DNA of 64,000 bases from Acidobacteriota bacterium (lineage in GTDB: Bacteria; Acidobacteriota; Thermoanaerobaculia; Gp7-AA8). Where the stretch lies: NCBI GenBank assembly GCA_019244185.1, contig JAFATB010000023.1, positions 128,001 to 192,000 on the forward strand, written 5' to 3'. The position numbers and the translations under genes are program-made. This document shows positions 1-23,668 of the stretch, in pieces (position 1 is the stretch's first letter; each line of letters starts with the position of its first letter). Below the pieces are notes generated by a model. The model searched no databases and was not told the origin of the DNA. It saw only the letters and a list, made by a program, of their open reading frames with translations.

Positions 1-1948
1 ACGCGCGCCTGGCGCGCGCCTTTTGCCCCGCGTCGCGCAGCACAATGCCGCGATTGAAGTAATTCGTCCAGAGCCACGGGTCGTTGTGCTTGCGGAGCGT
101 GGGAGCGGCGGTCGCGAGCTCCGCGATCGCCGCATCGATGTCGCCGTCGAGAATCGCCGTCAGCAGCGCGCGCTGCGTCAACGTCCGCGCTCGTTCCACG
201 CCGCCTCTCTGTTGCGCGAGCACATCTGCAAGGTGTTCGTCGCTCTCCTCGAGCTTGCGATATACCGCCGGCGCCATTCCTTTGCGATCCCGCAGCACGA
301 GCGCCTCTTCGTAGAGAAGCCACGCGAGATTGACGCGGACCGCGCGCACCAGATCGGAGCTTCCAGCGACCTGGGCATACGGAAGTGCGCGACGGAACGC
401 GCGCTCCGCGTCGCGGAATCGGTGCTGGTGAAGCGCGAGGATGCCCGCTTCATTCAGAGCACCGCCGACGCCGTTCCGGTCGCGGAGCCGTGCGTACAGC
501 CGTGCTGCCCGCCGGTACGCATCCTCGGCCTCCGCGTGCTTGCCGCGGTCGCGAAAGAATGCAGCGAGGCGGTCGTACCCGCGTGCTTCTTGCTCGGGCT
601 CGTTCCGCGACAGAGCGATCGAATGGCGGAACAGTCGTTCCACTCGCTTCGCCGGCGCACCCGCCTCGAGTTCCATTTCGGCCAGCCGGCGTGACGCGGC
701 GGCAGGCGTGCCGGGCCGCGTCGAACGGAGTAGTGCGCGGTAGATGGAGCGCGCGAATGCGCGGTCACGTTCCTCGTTGTAAATCGCGAGGTTGTACCGG
801 TAATCCTGGAGCGTCCACGGGTCACGGCAATGCGGAACGTGGCGCTCGCAGCGGCGCAGCATGCGACCAACGTAGCGGTCGTCCCACAGGCGCATGCTGG
901 CCATGTTGCTGCCAATGCGCAGCGCGATGCACGAGCGGCCATGTTTCTCAGCGAGGCGGAGCATGCGGCCGCCGACGCGGGCGTAATCACGGGCCAGGCC
1001 GCCGGTCCAGAACATCCGATCGTTGTTCATGAAGACGTCGAGCTTCTCGTCCGCGGTGCGCGCCGCGGCGACCCGCTTTTCCAGCGCCTCGACCGCGCGC
1101 GACTTCTCCTCGGCGAGACGATTGGCCCGCCGCGCTGGTGCGAGCGCTGCGAGGAACGCCGTGATCATCGGGTATTCGCCGTCGACGTACCAGATCGGAC
1201 GGATACCGAGGCGCGCCAGCGCCGCCGCGCGTTTCTTTCGCGACGCGTCGCCCGCGGGCGCGGGAAGAATCGCAAAATGCTGGCGCCGGCCGGCGCGGCG
1301 GATCAGGCGCAAATACCGGTCGCTTTCGACGCGGCAGCCGAGGAACAACACTGGTTTTGCAGAGAACAGCGCGACCAGCATCTCCGCGAGCTGCGCGTCC
1401 TCGGCATAATGCTGGTCGTACTCGCTCCGCGTGAGCACGCGTCCACGCGGCGTTCGCGCGTCGCCGTGAATCTTGATGAGCACGTGCTGTTGCTCGCGCA
1501 AGGCCCGCTTCGCCAACAACGGAAGCCCGCTCCAGAGCTCGTGATCGAACGGCAATTGCGCGTGTAAGAACACCTCCTCGAGGACGTGATCGAAATTAGT
1601 GGTGACGACAGCGCCGCGTGCGAGCCGCGGCACGAGCTCCGCGGCGGTGTCGCGCTGCTTCCGCGGTGCTTTGCCGAAGATGCGTGAAATCTCACGGTCG
1701 AACCACGCGCGGCCGCGCGCCGCGAGGATGTCCTCGGCCGCCTCCTCGAATTCACCGCGGGCGATGCGTTGCCGCACATCGACGGCGGCCTCCGCGCTGC
1801 AGTCTCTGAGGAAACTCGCCCACAGGGGGAAGCCGTACGGAAACGACAAGCCCGCGCCGACGAACGGCGTCACACCCGTGCGCGTGATGGCCGAACGCAA
1901 CGCTGGAATGGCCCGCCCGTTACCAGGAAACTCGTCGATCGGCGTCAC
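1..1948 (-). CDS. SIR2-like (SIR2_2) domain fused to TPR-like helical repeats; 3' end runs off the window
   Basis: Manual translation from GTG 1948 (GGAG SD upstream) stays open to base 1. Sirtuin-like motifs PFVGAGLS, VVTTNFD, LIKIHGD, VLFLGC are followed by TPR-like helices (RGKHAEAEDAYRRAARLY, GALNEAGILALHQHRFRDAERAFRRAL). Absent from the ORF track because there is no stop in the window. Confidence 0.88.
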   Translation of the reverse strand, partial: MTPIDEFPGNGRAIPALRSAITRTGVTPFVGAGLSFPYGFPLWASFLRDCSAEAAVDVRQRIARGEFEEAAEDILAARGRAWFDREISRIFGKAPRKQRDTAAELVPRLARGAVVTTNFDHVLEEVFLHAQLPFDHELWSGLPLLAKRALREQQHVLIKIHGDARTPRGRVLTRSEYDQHYAEDAQLAEMLVALFSAKPVLFLGCRVESDRYLRLIRRAGRRQHFAILPAPAGDASRKKRAAALARLGIRPIWYVDGEYPMITAFLAALAPARRANRLAEEKSRAVEALEKRVAAARTADEKLDVFMNNDRMFWTGGLARDYARVGGRMLRLAEKHGRSCIALRIGSNMASMRLWDDRYVGRMLRRCERHVPHCRDPWTLQDYRYNLAIYNEERDRAFARSIYRALLRSTRPGTPAAASRRLAEMELEAGAPAKRVERLFRHSIALSRNEPEQEARGYDRLAAFFRDRGKHAEAEDAYRRAARLYARLRDRNGVGGALNEAGILALHQHRFRDAERAFRRALPYAQVAGSSDLVRAVRVNLAWLLYEEALVLRDRKGMAPAVYRKLEESDEHLADVLAQQRGGVERARTLTQRALLTAILDGDIDAAIAELATAAPTLRKHNDPWLWTNYFNRGIVLRDAGQKARARRA

Positions 1949-18860: not shown

Positions 18861-20252
18861 TCAGGGTCTCAGTTCCACCTCCGCGACGCCTGTGGCGATG
18901 ATGTGCACGACGATCGCGGTTGGTGTCGCAGTGACGCGTTGCGGTTCGATGGCGTCGGCGTGGCCGCGGAGTTGGACGTTGGGGGCGAGGGGGCGGGTGA
19001 GGGCGCGGGTGATCTCGTTGCGGGTCGCGGCGATGCGGGGGCCGACGGGGAAGCGGGCGGACTCGCGCATGCGCTGGCGGATCGTGTCGTGGGCGGCGCG
19101 TTCGGCGATGCGCACGAGGAAGCCGCGGCGTTTCGGATCGAGCGAGTATTCGAGATCGGGGACGGTGATCGTGGAGGAGGCGGCGTCGAATTGCGGAGTG
19201 CCTTCGAGGAACACCGCGCCGTGATAGTTGCGGAGTACGCCGCCGCGGTAATCGATCATCGCCTCGACGGCGACGCGGTTGTTCGGGGCGGGGGAGAGCT
19301 TGATCGACTCGATCGTGAGCGGGCGGCCGTTCACGTTGTACTTCTGGCCCGCGACTTCAGAAGAGGCGAGGCGCGTCGCGTCGTCGTAGGAAAGCTCGAG
19401 ATCGAAGGGCACGCGGATGCCGGTGGGCGTCTTGCCGGTGGCGACGCGGAGCGTGGGGAGCGGTTTGCGTGCGGGGGTGGGTTGGGGGCCGACGACCACG
19501 CGCGTTTGCGCGCGCATCGAGAGCGTGCTCGTCACGATCGTGCCGGAGCCGGTGATCGGGCCGAGCGCGACGTCGATGGGATCGAGCACGAGCCACACGC
19601 GATCGGCGAGGGCGACGGGTGTCTGCAGCGCGTTCCACATCTGCTGCGCCTGCGGGCGGATGCTGGTGAGGGATGGAGTGGTGCGGTCGATCGTCTTCGC
19701 GGCGAGGTTCAGTTGCTCCTCGACGACGGGAGCGACGAAGCGCGGCGTGATGTCGAAGCCGAGCCAGTTCGTCTCGCACGGCTTCGCGTAGTTCACGGGG
19801 AGGAGTCGCGTCGTCGAGCGAAGGCGCCACGCGGGATCCCAATCGAACTTCGCGTGCAGGGTGACTTCCGCTTCGCGTCGCGCCTCGGCCCAGCCGCAGG
19901 AGATGCAGGGGAAGCGGCCGCGGCACGCCTGCAGGCCGTACTTGACGGTCGTCGAGGCGTGCAGTCCGCCGCCGATCATTTGCAGGCGCAACGGTGCGCG
20001 CGCGACCGTGTACTCGATGTCGATGCCGCGTTCCGTCGTCTTGTCGGAGAACGTTTTCGGCACGCGCGCCTCGATCTCCGGGACGAGCGGCGCGAGGTTT
20101 GCGCGGATCGGCACGGCGATCGTCGACAGCTCGGCGGGCGCGGCGGCGGGTGCCTGGGCCGCGAGACGTCCGGCGAGGAGAACCGTCAGAGGGAACAAGA
20201 GACGGGGGAATCGCGCGTTACCTCGTATGATCGCAACGAGAACCTTGTTCAT
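18861..20252 (-). CDS. DUF4403-like secreted protein
   Basis: Signal-like N-terminus; WNALQTPV...VWLVLDP pattern; start uncertain. Confidence 0.7.
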   Translation of the reverse strand: MNKVLVAIIRGNARFPRLLFPLTVLLAGRLAAQAPAAAPAELSTIAVPIRANLAPLVPEIEARVPKTFSDKTTERGIDIEYTVARAPLRLQMIGGGLHASTTVKYGLQACRGRFPCISCGWAEARREAEVTLHAKFDWDPAWRLRSTTRLLPVNYAKPCETNWLGFDITPRFVAPVVEEQLNLAAKTIDRTTPSLTSIRPQAQQMWNALQTPVALADRVWLVLDPIDVALGPITGSGTIVTSTLSMRAQTRVVVGPQPTPARKPLPTLRVATGKTPTGIRVPFDLELSYDDATRLASSEVAGQKYNVNGRPLTIESIKLSPAPNNRVAVEAMIDYRGGVLRNYHGAVFLEGTPQFDAASSTITVPDLEYSLDPKRRGFLVRIAERAAHDTIRQRMRESARFPVGPRIAATRNEITRALTRPLAPNVQLRGHADAIEPQRVTATPTAIVVHIIATGVAEVELRP

Positions 20253-20291
20253 GTCCGCACTCGCAACCGGCCGTCGCCTCGGAGTCATCCC

Positions 20292-21830
20292 CTGAAGCGG
20301 ATCTCATTCCTTCCGCTCTTCTTCACGGCGCTCGCCATCGTCTTCGCGGTCGCGGTCTGGATCCGCATCCGGACGTTCGACCGCGACGAGGTCAGCGACG
20401 CGACGACGACCTCACTTGCGCGCACGTCGACATCGGCGAGCAGCGGCGCGGCGAATGCGGGCGGCGAGAACACGATGACGGTCGTTCCCGTCGGCGATGC
20501 GAATGCGCCGACGAGCCTCGAGGCCGCGGCGCGTGCGCGCGAGCAGCGCTACAACGAACTGCTGCGCAGCCAGCCGCCCGCGGCGGCGCCCGCGCCCGCA
20601 CCGGCCGCGCCGTCGCTCTTTCATCGCATCGTCGCGCCGATCGCGAGTGCGCTCGGCATCGGGGCGAAGCCGACGCCGCCGCAGCAGCAGGCGCAGTCCG
20701 CGACGCAGCGTCCGGTGGCGCAGCAGCCGCCGCAGCCGGACGACCATGCGCGCACGCCGCAGGAAGAGCGCGATCCCGACTCCGACGTCACGCCGCCGCA
20801 ACTGCGCGGCTGCGAGTTCACGCCGGCGCAGGTGCAGGACGGCGACGACACCATCTTCAGCGCCATCGTCGTCGACGACCTCTCCGGCGTGCGCAGCGTC
20901 TCGGGCGTCATCGCCAGCCCGTCGGGCGCGCCGCAGGGGTTCGCCGCGCAACGCGAAGGAGAGAGCGACCGCTTCGTCTCGAAGATCAGCATTCCGAAGG
21001 AAGCGGCGGAGGGGATCTGGACGGTCAAGTACTTGACCTTGTCCGACAACGCCAGCAACAGCATCAACCTCAACGCGGCGCAGGGGCAGCTGCCGGGCAG
21101 CGCGGCGTTCCGCGTCACGTCGTCGCGCTCCGACTCGACGGGGCCGGCGCTCAAGGCCATCTGGCTGGACCGGCCGTCGATGAAGGCGGGGGATCAGAAC
21201 ACGATCTTCGTGACCGCCGAGGATGACAAGTCGGGCGTGGCGCTGGTGAGCGGCGTGTTCATCAGCCCGTCGAAGCAGGCGCGCATCGGCTTCGGCTGCC
21301 GCGCGGGCAACAACCCGACCACATGGGAGTGCGCGGTGGCGCCGCCGACGTGTCTCGACTGCGGCACGTGGCAGCTCGAGCAGGTGCAGCTGCAGGACAA
21401 AGCGAACAACACCTCCACGTTCCGAGGGGACAACCCGATGGTCGCGCCGGTGCATCTCGACATCGCGGGCGAGAGCTGCGATGCGGGTGCGCCGTCGGTG
21501 TCGTCGCTCACGCTCGATCCGCCGGTGGTGTCGAATGCGGAGTCGACGGTCATCAACGTGCACGCGATCGTGGCGGACGACGGCTGCGGCGTCGCCAGTC
21601 TCAGCGGCCAGGCGGCCGGTCCCGCGATATCGAACGGCGCGCGGCTCTACTTCTCGTTCGATCCGTCGGCGGACGGCACGAACTTCATCGGCCACATCAC
21701 CGTGCCCAAGCATGCGGCGAAAGGCGTGTGGACGATCGCGTGGATTCAGGCGCTGGACAAGGGTCACAACCTGCGCGCGTACGCGGCGAACGATCCGGTG
21801 ATCGCGAGGGTGACGTTCCGCGTGGAGTAG
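20292..21830 (+). CDS. Membrane-anchored protein with Pro/Gln linker and three Ig-like repeats
   Basis: TM helix after a probable CTG start (GGAG 7 nt upstream); three D..(P/G)P...DD.SGV..VS...G.W......D...N repeats. Confidence 0.75.
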   Translation: MKRISFLPLFFTALAIVFAVAVWIRIRTFDRDEVSDATTTSLARTSTSASSGAANAGGENTMTVVPVGDANAPTSLEAAARAREQRYNELLRSQPPAAAPAPAPAAPSLFHRIVAPIASALGIGAKPTPPQQQAQSATQRPVAQQPPQPDDHARTPQEERDPDSDVTPPQLRGCEFTPAQVQDGDDTIFSAIVVDDLSGVRSVSGVIASPSGAPQGFAAQREGESDRFVSKISIPKEAAEGIWTVKYLTLSDNASNSINLNAAQGQLPGSAAFRVTSSRSDSTGPALKAIWLDRPSMKAGDQNTIFVTAEDDKSGVALVSGVFISPSKQARIGFGCRAGNNPTTWECAVAPPTCLDCGTWQLEQVQLQDKANNTSTFRGDNPMVAPVHLDIAGESCDAGAPSVSSLTLDPPVVSNAESTVINVHAIVADDGCGVASLSGQAAGPAISNGARLYFSFDPSADGTNFIGHITVPKHAAKGVWTIAWIQALDKGHNLRAYAANDPVIARVTFRVE

Positions 21831-21842
21831 AGGAGAGCGCGG

Positions 21843-21880
21843 AAAAAGTTAAAGACTCGCGGTCTCTGATTCCGCGAGTC
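21843..21880 (-). terminator. Intrinsic terminator of the candidate sRNA (may also end the convergent CDS)
   Basis: GACTCGCGG-aatcagaga-CCGCGAGTC followed by TTTAACTTTTT on the minus strand. Confidence 0.75.
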
Positions 21881-22075
21881 CATTCCTCGGTCCGTTAACA
21901 GCGATCAGAGCGCATTCGAACCGAAACCATTCCGAAACGCCTCTGCCTCTCGGAACGAAACGCAAACCGTTGACAGCTGCAGAGGAGCATCCGGTTCGCT
22001 CGCCTCGGCATCCAGCAACCCCGAAGCGCCCCTCAGCCCGTTGACATCGTGCATGGCGCGTTCGAACTGAGGTGA
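21843..22075 (-). ncRNA. Candidate structured sRNA with three tandem kissing-hairpin modules
   Basis: Flanked by promoter and terminator; three 24-nt cores GRAYGC-N11-TGTYAAC in hairpins; loop-loop complementarity; G-U pairs work only on the minus strand. Confidence 0.7.
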
Positions 22076-22080
22076 GCATC

Positions 22081-22131
22081 AATCTGAGTTCGCGGGTTGC
22101 GATCGTCAAGTGGGTCGACAAAATTTTTTTT
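22081..22131 (-). promoter_or_regulatory. sigma70-type promoter with UP-like A/T tract driving the candidate sRNA
   Basis: TTGACG (22109-22104), 17 bp, CAGATT (22086-22081); AAAAAAAATTTT tract upstream. Confidence 0.6.
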
Positions 22132-22162
22132 GCGACGGTTTGGTTGACGACTTGGCTCGGTC

Positions 22163-22191
22163 GTGACGCCGCTCGGAAATTCGAGTAGGAT
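22163..22191 (+). promoter_or_regulatory. sigma70-type promoter of the S1-domain gene
   Basis: GTGACG-17-TAGGAT. Confidence 0.5.
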
Positions 22192-22252
22192 ACGCGTCCC
22201 AACCGTTCTCGCGGCCGAGAACCAATCACTGAAAGGTACGCAGGAAATCCCC

Positions 22253-23668
22253 ATGAGTCAGTCGAGAGAGAACGCCGAGGCTACGTCTTTTGCCGAGGCG
22301 ATGGAGAATTTGGACCTCAAAACTCCCCAGCAGGGCGAGCTGCTTCGCGGGACGATCGTCTCGATTTCGGGAGAGGATGCCTACATCTCTTACGGTGGCC
22401 CCTCGGAAGCGGTGATGGACACCGCGGAGCTCGAGGGCCTCGACGTCGGTGACTCCATCGAGGCGACGGTCGTCAAGACGTCCCCCGAAATCCGCGTGTC
22501 GCGGAAGCTGATCAAAGGCAAGGCGTCGCTCGAGCAGTTGCGCGGCGCGTTTGAAAATCGCCTTCCGGTCGAAGGCCGCGTCACCGGCCGCAACAAGGGC
22601 GGCTTCGAAGTCAACATCAGCGGCCTGCGCGCCTTCTGCCCGCTCTCGCAGATCGCGCTCGGCAAGATCGAGAACCCCGACTCGTTCGTCAACCAGACGG
22701 TCGAGTTCCGCGTCACCGAGCTGAGCGAAGACGGCCGCCGCATCGTCGTCTCGCGCGCCGCGCTGCTCAAGGAAGCCGCCGCCGAACGCGCCGCCGAAAC
22801 GCGCGCGCGCATCGTCCCCGGCGCCGAGCTCACCGGCCGCGTGAAAACGCTCACGCCCTTCGGCGCCTTCGTCGACCTCGGCGGCGTCGACGGCCTCCTC
22901 CACGTCTCGGAGATGAGCCGCCGCCGCGTGACCGATCCCAAAGAAGTCGTCCAGATCGGCCAGGAAGTCCACGTCAAGGTCATCAAGATCGAGAACGACG
23001 GCAAGCGCATCTCGCTGTCGATGAAAGATCAGGAGCCCGATCCGTGGTACGACGTCGCCGAGCGCTACGCGCCGGGCACGCCGTTCTCGGGCCGCATCGT
23101 CCGCTCCACCGACTTCGGCTACTTCGTCGAAGTGGAGCCGGGTCTCGACGGACTCGTGCACGTCTCGCAGCTGCCGCACGGCATCAAGCCGGGCGATACG
23201 GAAGTCGCCATCGGCTCGAACGTCCAGGGCTGGGTCCGCGAAGTCGATCCGTCGAAGAAGCGCCTCTCGCTCTCGCTCCGCGCGGTCGCCACGAGCGATC
23301 CGTGGGAGTCGGCCTCGCAGCGCTACGGCATCGGCCGTGTCGTCGAAGGCACCGTGGATCATGGCGGCGCGCCCGGCATCTTCGTCGAGCTCGAGCCGGG
23401 TCTCACCGGTCTCATCCCGAACTCCGAGATCTCCGTCGCGCCCGGACAGGATCCGTCGCAGGCGCATCAGCCCGGCGAGAAGCTGATGGTGCGCATCATG
23501 AGCATCGACGCGCAGCGCAAGCGCATCTCGCTCAGCCACGAGGCCGCGAAGGCCGCCGCCGAGCGCGAGGAGTACACGAAGTTCATGGACGAGCGCGGCG
23601 ACGACAACGCCGGCGAGAGCGCGATGGCGCTCGCGTTCAAGCGCGCCATGGAAAAGAAGAACCGGTAG
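22253..23668 (+). CDS. Ribosomal protein S1-like RNA-binding protein (about 5 S1 domains; possibly an rpsA paralog)
   Basis: Repeated S1 motifs FGAFVDLGGVDGLLHVSEM, FGYFVEVEPGLDGLVHVSQL, RISLS; 471 aa. Confidence 0.9.
   Translation: MSQSRENAEATSFAEAMENLDLKTPQQGELLRGTIVSISGEDAYISYGGPSEAVMDTAELEGLDVGDSIEATVVKTSPEIRVSRKLIKGKASLEQLRGAFENRLPVEGRVTGRNKGGFEVNISGLRAFCPLSQIALGKIENPDSFVNQTVEFRVTELSEDGRRIVVSRAALLKEAAAERAAETRARIVPGAELTGRVKTLTPFGAFVDLGGVDGLLHVSEMSRRRVTDPKEVVQIGQEVHVKVIKIENDGKRISLSMKDQEPDPWYDVAERYAPGTPFSGRIVRSTDFGYFVEVEPGLDGLVHVSQLPHGIKPGDTEVAIGSNVQGWVREVDPSKKRLSLSLRAVATSDPWESASQRYGIGRVVEGTVDHGGAPGIFVELEPGLTGLIPNSEISVAPGQDPSQAHQPGEKLMVRIMSIDAQRKRISLSHEAAKAAAEREEYTKFMDERGDDNAGESAMALAFKRAMEKKNR

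Follow-up and report, generated by a model that had tools for sequence, protein, structure and literature searches.

Among the described RNAs closest to the subject of this report, CsrB/RsmZ are stand-alone multi-hairpin RNAs carrying GGA in loops or single strands for CsrA/RsmA, with a copy number that differs among species, and RNA I and RNA II of ColE1 are antisense transcripts that kiss in trans in the control of plasmid copy number. In the guanidine-IV (mepA) riboswitch, which lies upstream of the regulated gene, the loop of a sensor hairpin kisses the terminator loop; the loop bases are conserved and make up the ligand site. ToxI-type antitoxin RNAs consist of units of ~36 nt located directly upstream of the toxin gene. 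The present work concerns a 64,000-nt stretch (hereafter, the window) from an Acidobacteriota bacterium of the class Thermoanaerobaculia (assembly GCA_019244185.1, contig JAFATB010000023.1, positions 128,001–192,000), whose minus strand appears to contain an independent gene for a structured non-coding RNA (ncRNA) of ~230 nt. Judging from sequence comparisons, we put at about 90% the probability that this is such a gene and that it belongs to a family that has not been described before and is restricted to one order-level clade of Thermoanaerobaculia. The transcript would run from a sigma-70-type promoter to an intrinsic terminator and would be built of tandem modules, each with a hairpin A that contains a near-invariant internal loop and whose 7-nt terminal loop would pair with that of the following hairpin, a role taken in the last module by the terminator hairpin.

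Like CsrB/RsmZ, the RNA of the window combines its own promoter and terminator with many hairpins repeating one short motif and a variable copy number; here, however, the loops are variable and occupied by kissing, the repeated motif is an internal loop and GGA stands in a stem context. A CsrB/RsmZ-type sponge was rejected on these features, as the A loops are pyrimidine-rich, variable and paired with the loops of the following hairpins B, and GGA is found only at core positions G11-R12-A13, in 52 of 75 modules. ColE1 RNA I/RNA II also present fully complementary 7-nt loops on two hairpins, but in the present RNA the two hairpins are neighbours within a single transcript, and the pair recurs 2 to 9 times. 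The guanidine-IV riboswitch also pairs a hairpin loop with the loop of a terminator hairpin, whereas here the loops are free to covary, the conserved positions are outside them, no regulated gene follows and no Rfam riboswitch matches. The two genes around the RNA, separated by a gap of 422 nt, are both encoded on the plus strand, opposite to the RNA, which is therefore not a leader; a riboswitch or other cis-regulatory leader was rejected for this reason and because the genomic contexts of the family vary. The ToxI RNAs are likewise tandem structured units with tertiary pairing inside each unit, but the units of the present family are 71–81 nt long, no neighbour is toxin-like and the next gene, a 975-aa open reading frame (ORF) on the plus strand, is convergent, as the first-pass annotation of this DNA had said in setting aside a type III toxin–antitoxin layout. 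The ToxI-like candidate was dropped on this arrangement and on the neighbours of the longer arrays, the commonest family of which occurs at 8 of 69 loci with none above; Pfam scanning of five recurrent neighbours returned unrelated families or none.

Acido-1 (RF01686) and Acido-Lenti-1 (RF01687) are orphan non-coding RNA motifs of Acidobacteria, as given in PMC2864571. The comparison with the 4227 models of Rfam 15, a set that includes these two motifs, 6S, riboswitches, ribozymes and ROOL/GOLLD/OLE, yielded no match at the gathering score in the window or in six other loci of the family; at E ≤ 10, only four matches were found in 21600–22400, with 15–16.5 bits against gathering scores of 40–90. 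Acido-1 and Acido-Lenti-1, likewise orphan RNA motifs of the phylum, are thus unmatched at all seven loci, which agrees with the first-pass annotation, where the family had not been recognised. The large RNAs ROOL, GOLLD and OLE are also bacterial ncRNAs of unknown function, but, to judge from PMC12286853, they are ornate and non-repetitive, while the RNA described here is a short array in which one simple module is repeated in tandem, without an Rfam match. The literature search found no description of the RNA in main texts, although the motif lists of relevant papers sit largely in supplements; the passages checked in PMC2864571, PMC5737381 and PMC11109978 do not describe it. If the reading is correct, the RNA represents a new class among the few conserved bacterial ncRNAs of unknown function, and no described counterpart was found for its design, a tandem array of kissing-hairpin pairs in 2–9 copies with loops that drift and stay complementary. 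A replacement of 6S RNA or signal recognition particle (SRP) RNA was rejected, since the standard genes are present in the genome, 6S on contig C2 (65.1 bits) and SRP RNA on contig C15 (67.5 bits), both above the cut-off. A tRNA or tRNA-like array was also discarded (ARAGORN, 0 genes in 21500–22500).

The elements of the RNA gene are given below in the order of transcription; R2 denotes a covariance model of hairpin A, MFE the minimum free energy fold, and the helices are numbered as in the alignment of orthologues.

22120–22131, minus strand: A/T tract (AAAAAAAATTTT) 5′ of the −35 hexamer, UP-element-like; the A-run followed by a T-run is kept in 6/7 close homologues.
22104–22109, minus strand: −35 hexamer TTGACG; T27, T28, G29, C31 and G32 are invariant in 7/7 sequences.
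22081–22086, minus strand: −10 hexamer CAGATT, 17-nt spacer from the −35; AGATTG is invariant in 7/7 sequences.
22031–22072, minus strand: hairpin A1, 10-bp outer stem, conserved core, 7-nt loop CCAUGCA (22056–22050); MFE fold, pair counts, R2 match of 42.7 bits.
22001–22028, minus strand: hairpin B1, loop segment UGCUGG (22017–22012) pairing with the A1 loop; MFE fold, stem helix 4 compensatory at 6/6 pairs.
21962–21999, minus strand: hairpin A2, 8-bp outer stem, core, loop CCUCUGC (21985–21979); MFE fold, pair counts, R2 match of 42.5 bits.
21927–21958, minus strand: hairpin B2, GCAGAGG (21946–21940) pairing with the A2 loop; MFE fold, kissing helix 6 paired at 96.8%.
21885–21926, minus strand: hairpin A3, 10-bp outer stem, core, loop CUCUGAU (21910–21904); MFE fold, pair counts, R2 match of 42.8 bits.
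21843–21880, minus strand: intrinsic terminator, 9-bp stem (21880–21854) with seven G-C pairs, 9-nt loop, U-tract at 21853–21843.

The region 22075–21843 of the minus strand thus contains six hairpins in the order A1, B1, A2, B2, A3 and the terminator hairpin, and exactly these six are returned by an unguided ViennaRNA fold of 22085–21843 at −100.4 kcal/mol. Shuffled versions of the minus strand fold at −88.4 ± 4.4 kcal/mol (z −2.77; 0 of 200 as good), and the plus-strand fold is weaker (z −1.62; 13 of 200 shuffles as good). Two loop complements are perfect over 7 bp, namely CCUCUGC/GCAGAGG (A2–B2) and CUCUGAU/AUCAGAG, where the second segment is located in the terminator loop (21870–21864) and is the partner of the A3 loop. 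The A1–B1 loops, CCAUGCA/UGCUGG, form 3+3 bp with one bulged U between, in keeping with the imperfect pairing noticed in the first-pass annotation. The promoter, the A/T tract, the three modules 71 and 75 nt apart, the loop complements and the intrinsic terminator were all found at the places that this annotation had assigned to them on the minus strand. Its spans of hairpins A hold for A1 and A3, but the span given for A2 (22007–21956) is slightly too wide and is replaced by 21999–21962.

A repeat finder detected the conserved 9-mer CCGTTGACA/CCGTTAACA three times, with a spacing of 71 and 75 nt. Tandem Repeats Finder reported no repeat at the locus, because the three units of the window are too diverged for it, only the core and the structure being common to the modules. 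The same divergence, together with a variable loop of hairpin A (the would-be repeat) that covaries with hairpin B (the would-be spacer), led to the rejection of a CRISPR array; no cas family was found among the neighbour proteins scanned by Pfam. The R2 model found the three sites of the window in the 5.3-Mb genome (E ~4e-8 each) and no further site at E ≤ 1, and the RNA region is single-copy in its genome.

The core of hairpin A is an asymmetric and almost invariant internal loop, 5′-G-R-A-Y-G-C / G-M-U-G-U-N-A-A-C-3′, which comprises a bulged U, an AA bulge and a U·G or C-G pair. At G11, A13, G15, G26, the bulged U28, A32 and A33, all 75 of the 75 modules compared agree; this count was relied on in preference to the invariant columns of alignment A4, which partly follow from the regular expression that selected the hairpins (9-nt middle segment, at most 37 of 44 shared positions, one chance match from Corynebacterium removed). 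The fold of the core proposed in the first-pass annotation is upheld as regards the bulges and the 7-nt loop, but the outermost of its first three base pairs, R12-N31, is not consistently paired according to the pair counts in 26 orthologues (alignment pairs 108-128 and 195-214). By eye, the core does not seem to match the consensus of a kink-turn, in which a bulge of three nucleotides precedes tandem sheared G·A and A·G pairs (R12 stands opposite N31-A32-A33, and G15·A27 is present in many modules).

BLAST with the 289-nt region in 61 genomes found six full-length relatives at 72–77% identity, and the seven-sequence alignment already contained compensatory changes along with conserved promoter hexamers and a conserved U-tract. 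Relatives beyond the reach of BLAST called for a covariance model of the whole RNA (R1), and the R1 search gave 26 orthologues from many genera. In their alignment, standard pairs, kissing helices included, occupy 92.7% of 2175 pair cells, compared with 31–41% when the 3′ partners are slid by 1–3 columns, and both sides have changed at 48 pairs, a number that none of 500 shuffles attained (28.6 ± 2.2); the alignment was fitted to the nested structure of R1, which favours the stems, and the kissing pairs lie outside this model. The stem of the terminator is compensatory at 6/9 pairs.

The A3–terminator kissing helix (helix 10) is compensatory at 7/7 pairs and paired at 98.9%, with variants such as CUCUGGU/ACCAGAG, CCCUGGU/AUCAGGG, UUCUAGU/ACUAGAA, CUCCAG/CUGGAG and UCUUUGC/GCAAAGA. 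In the A2–B2 kissing helix 2/7 pairs are compensatory, and locus L051 has a matched one-base deletion in both loops. In 126 modules of longer arrays (kept of 216 so that no two are more than 88% identical), the kissing helix is paired at 96.8% and compensatory at 6/7 pairs; one of its column pairs is represented by C-G 52, U-A 41, U-G 23 and G-C 5 times. At least seven contiguous base pairs between the A loop and the next hairpin are found in 278 of 356 modules, which are those of 404 regular-expression matches having a neighbour 60–100 nt away; the controls gave 47/356 for shuffled loops and 103/356 for non-cognate partners from other loci. The loop sequences therefore vary among modules and species while complementarity is retained, and the covariation of the loops claimed by the first-pass annotation is seen both in the 26 orthologues collected by the covariance model and in the long-array modules. 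As for method, a structure read by eye in a single sequence could here be confirmed by covariation.

The strand is fixed by the kind of mismatch. In the orthologue alignment, G·U cells number 244 and A·C cells 37, which places the RNA on the minus strand, as had been proposed; read on the opposite strand, the structure would pair in only 83.2% of cells. These data also bear on the view that there is no RNA at all and that the locus is a set of repeated DNA sites (GTTRACA protein-binding sites or palindromes like repetitive extragenic palindromes (REP) and miniature inverted-repeat transposable elements (MITE)) or a chance pattern. The core does contain TTGACA-like words on the plus strand, and a strict consensus scan called no promoter or terminator; nevertheless, the stems and loop–loop pairs stay paired through changes on both sides, DNA palindromes do not carry such a strand-specific G·U signature, conservation of the U-tract and of the promoter is limited to one strand, and there is a single locus per genome here, without dispersed copies. 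The GTTRACA sites are always accompanied by covarying stems, so the possibility raised in the first-pass annotation that they are mere DNA motifs is extremely improbable.

The promoter and terminator are also recognisable beyond the window. The 3′ end of the RNA has the constitution of an intrinsic (Rho-independent) terminator, with a G+C-rich hairpin at 21880–21854 followed on the transcribed strand by the U-tract UUUAACUUUUU. A T-run was found 31–38 nt past the last A hairpin in 93 of 98 non-redundant arrays (duplicates and arrays near locus ends left out), and the remaining five run on into modules missed by the search. A promoter-like TTGNNN-16..18-NANNNT is located upstream in 65 of these 98 arrays. 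In the window, TTGACG-17-CAGATT compares with a sigma-70-type promoter and is kept in 7/7 sequences, but its −10 element agrees with TATAAT at only three of six positions. Transcription is inferred to start near 22075. The prediction of a promoter and a terminator belonging to the RNA itself is in line with the conserved hexamers and the T-runs. Two ORFs, of 126 aa (21849–22229, minus strand) and 49 aa (21905–22054, minus strand), overlap the RNA on the same strand; they are unlikely to be coding, because the homologues carry one- and two-base indels.

Chained nhmmer matches over all loci indicate arrays of 2 to 9 modules, three being the commonest number (73 of 170), a distribution that is approximate since the loci are partly redundant and some genomes were taken twice. 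The three-module form has a period of 71–77 nt and always lies between a homologue of the 975-aa gene and a paralogue of ribosomal protein S1 (41 loci); its cognate loops are complementary over 5.4–6.9 bp on average, against 2.5–5.3 bp off the diagonal. Two-module versions of the S1-adjacent RNA are uncommon and were seen at L022 (genome G022), L064 (G063) and L065 (G061); there, one whole A+B unit is lost and the remaining loops still match, which shows that modules are gained and lost as units. The longer arrays have a period of 79–81 nt and varied genomic contexts, with up to 8 modules in the L025 arrays. Their hairpin B has a 10–11-bp stem and a 7-nt loop exactly complementary to the 7-nt loop of A; the inner units hardly differ, a sign of recent duplication, and carry nearly one loop pair, YNAUCGC with GCGAUNR. 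For RNA structural biology, the family would provide a natural set of orthogonal 7-bp kissing pairs joined to a small invariant internal loop.

The family appears to be taxonomically narrow. Within the genus, R1 gave matches, often overlapping, in 32 of 35 genomes, the three others being 84–93% complete. In the class sample, R1 matched 31 of 35 genomes of the family f1 and the single genome of the sister family f3, and none of 114 sampled genomes of fifteen other families under strict filters. In the phylum sample, the matches were 4/4 for f1, 1/1 for f3 and, under the same filters, 0/145 for the other sampled genomes; the single-hairpin model gave one marginal match there (24.6 bits). The f3 member has two modules with variant cores and matching loops. 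Retention in 32/35 genomes of the genus and in 31/35 sampled genomes of the family would, if the reading holds, imply an important function in this little-known, uncultured soil lineage of Acidobacteriota; the significance is limited by the carriers being uncultured and the family being narrow.

A DNA-pattern scan of a genome collection gave at least 119 loci, 97 of which hold two or more modules. Among the matches listed, 68 of 80 named records are labelled Thermoanaerobaculia or Acidobacteriota, the other 12 contain no module, and the named module-bearing records are metagenome-assembled genomes of Thermoanaerobaculia. The phylum supposed in the first-pass annotation, Acidobacteriota, is thereby borne out. 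Nineteen of the at least 119 loci have no module by nhmmer, among them records of Micromonospora, Ruminococcus, Corynebacterium and Frankia. Seven Micromonospora records (L076, L088, L107, L122, L127, L141 and L145) show one two-module pattern match each and no nhmmer module; the probable cause is a chance fit of the pattern to a conserved stretch of coding sequence. Two pattern matches were found in viral contigs, and the one inspected (L210) resembles coding sequence without modules.

A hint of expression comes from RNA libraries. A 156-nt contig with a depth of 51 from a soil metatranscriptome (X2) aligns to 21874–22029, and a 169-nt contig from a second record (X1), labelled metatranscriptomic and marked "probably DNA", aligns to 21878–22045. 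Both lie wholly inside the RNA, with 3–5 differences each; the flanks are uncovered, which is no evidence of silence, as three runs were sampled at a small share each (0.04–0.10 of words) and as contigs only. The contigs are a weak hint that the RNA is transcribed in close relatives.

The RNA is flanked by two protein-coding genes, which are given here as context only.

18903–21830, plus strand: convergent neighbour, 975-aa ORF, no Pfam or NCBIfam match.
22253–23668, plus strand: divergent neighbour, S1-domain protein of 471 aa, Pfam S1 ×4.

The 975-aa ORF is conserved (39–61% identity over the C-terminal half) and is convergent and syntenic with the RNA in a subclade; as a functional lead it was dropped for lack of any Pfam or NCBIfam match. 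The 471-aa S1-domain gene encodes a paralogue of ribosomal protein S1 and is distinct from rpsA. Its score of 336 bits falls short of the rpsA cut-off (577), which the canonical gene on another contig of the genome passes with 612 bits; the two copies share 35% identity. Since the paralogue is divergently placed in many genera, it is a candidate partner of the RNA, though a doubtful one.

As to function, the repeated identical internal loop could be the working surface of the RNA, and the kissing pair would keep this loop in a fixed shape. The RNA may then act as a multivalent platform, a sponge or a scaffold, that would bind several copies of one protein, with the number of modules setting the binding capacity. 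This is the simplest reading of a stand-alone RNA on which one identical surface recurs; we propose this function tentatively, with the odds somewhat against it.

Several observations weigh against the account given so far. The strict consensus scan called neither the promoter nor the terminator of the locus, the latter because its 9-nt loop exceeds the 8-nt limit of the scan. The A1–B1 kissing helix (helix 3) is weaker than the other two, with 83.2% paired and 1/8 pairs compensatory. The RNA-library contigs are unstranded and give no strand, ends or level, and DNA can occur in such libraries. A strict link to the S1 paralogue was rejected: the paralogue is present in the families f8, f10, f12, f14 and f16, all without the RNA; in 15 genomes that lie beyond the close subclade, its upstream regions gave no module (best match 10.9 bits); and three genomes (G038, G069 and G073) carry the RNA away from it. 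The wide, RNA-free occurrence of the paralogue and the presence of the RNA elsewhere in three lineages suggest that their adjacency may reflect an inherited order of genes. The conserved nucleotides might just as well serve structure alone, forming a kink, or bind a small ligand. Finally, by rough geometry and without computation, the short linkers make a straight intramolecular kissing complex awkward, which favours self-assembly.

In the self-assembly alternative, the A and B loops would pair between molecules and give dimers, closed oligomers or a lattice, and the internal loop would act in docking or as a kink. The same rough geometry speaks for it, inasmuch as the hairpins are long and adjacent and the short linkers cannot span a coaxial A–kiss–B rod; in the inner modules of long arrays, moreover, the near-identical loop pair would allow any A to pair with any B. 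Precedents exist in homo-oligomeric complexes of natural bacterial RNAs, including ROOL, GOLLD and OLE, as described in PMC12286853 and in bioRxiv 10.64898/2026.07.01.735769. On the other hand, the bulges in A could provide the bend needed for kissing in cis, the module-specific loops of the three-module form suit independent folding of modules, and covariation cannot separate pairing in cis from pairing in trans. We consider self-assembly rather unlikely. A particular form of it, held at a similarly low level of confidence, is a natural block of "RNA origami", in which module-specific loops would be programmable connectors in trans, arrays of 2–9 modules would build RNA-only oligomers, sheets or condensates, and the angle at which helices meet would depend on the invariant AA/U-bulge internal loop.

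The conserved asymmetric internal loop with its invariant unpaired bases could also be a small aptamer. Under such a scheme of ligand sensing, kissing of the terminator loop by the last module would tune termination and, hence, read-through into downstream or antisense sequence. In every case the last A loop is paired with the loop of the terminator, read-through at this locus would be antisense to the 975-aa gene, and the kiss of a sensor hairpin with a terminator loop resembles the guanidine-IV (mepA) design. However, the kiss takes the terminator loop only and leaves the 9-bp stem and the U-tract intact, the unconserved loop sequences imply that the kiss is no binding pocket, and up to nine modules precede one terminator. 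With no common family or direction among the downstream genes and no match to an Rfam riboswitch family, ligand sensing is improbable.

Two further alternatives start from the tandem arrangement. The RNA could be a precursor cut to unit-length small RNAs, antitoxin-like (type III) or of another multi-copy processed kind, as the constant 79–81-nt head-to-tail units of the long arrays, the near identity of the inner ones and the variable copy number would allow. It could also be a series of tandem self-cleaving ribozymes or another catalytic RNA, the invariant core held by a tertiary loop–loop contact and repeated in tandem being the active site. Both are opposed by the RNA-library contigs, as the 156- and 169-nt sequences span more than one module and so cross module borders. 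Processing is further disfavoured by the lack of a conserved neighbour gene fit for a toxin or nuclease, by the convergent orientation of the next gene at this locus, by units twice as long as the known antitoxin repeats, and by linkers without a conserved cleavage motif except GAGAAYG ahead of the terminator; we judge it quite improbable. The core, for its part, is a small internal loop inside one hairpin, and no Rfam 15 ribozyme family matches even at E up to 10, which makes catalysis very improbable.

A minor observation concerns the promoters of the long arrays. Most of them have a conserved GGAAAAC-N4-6-GAAAATGTAACAGCGAAAA directly 5′ of a TTGCNN-17-TANNTT promoter (e.g., L025, 1010–1100). 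The GAAAATGTAACAGCGAAAA element in front of the −35 could serve as a UP element or as the site of a regulator; the promoter of the window lacks it and has a plain A/T tract in this place.

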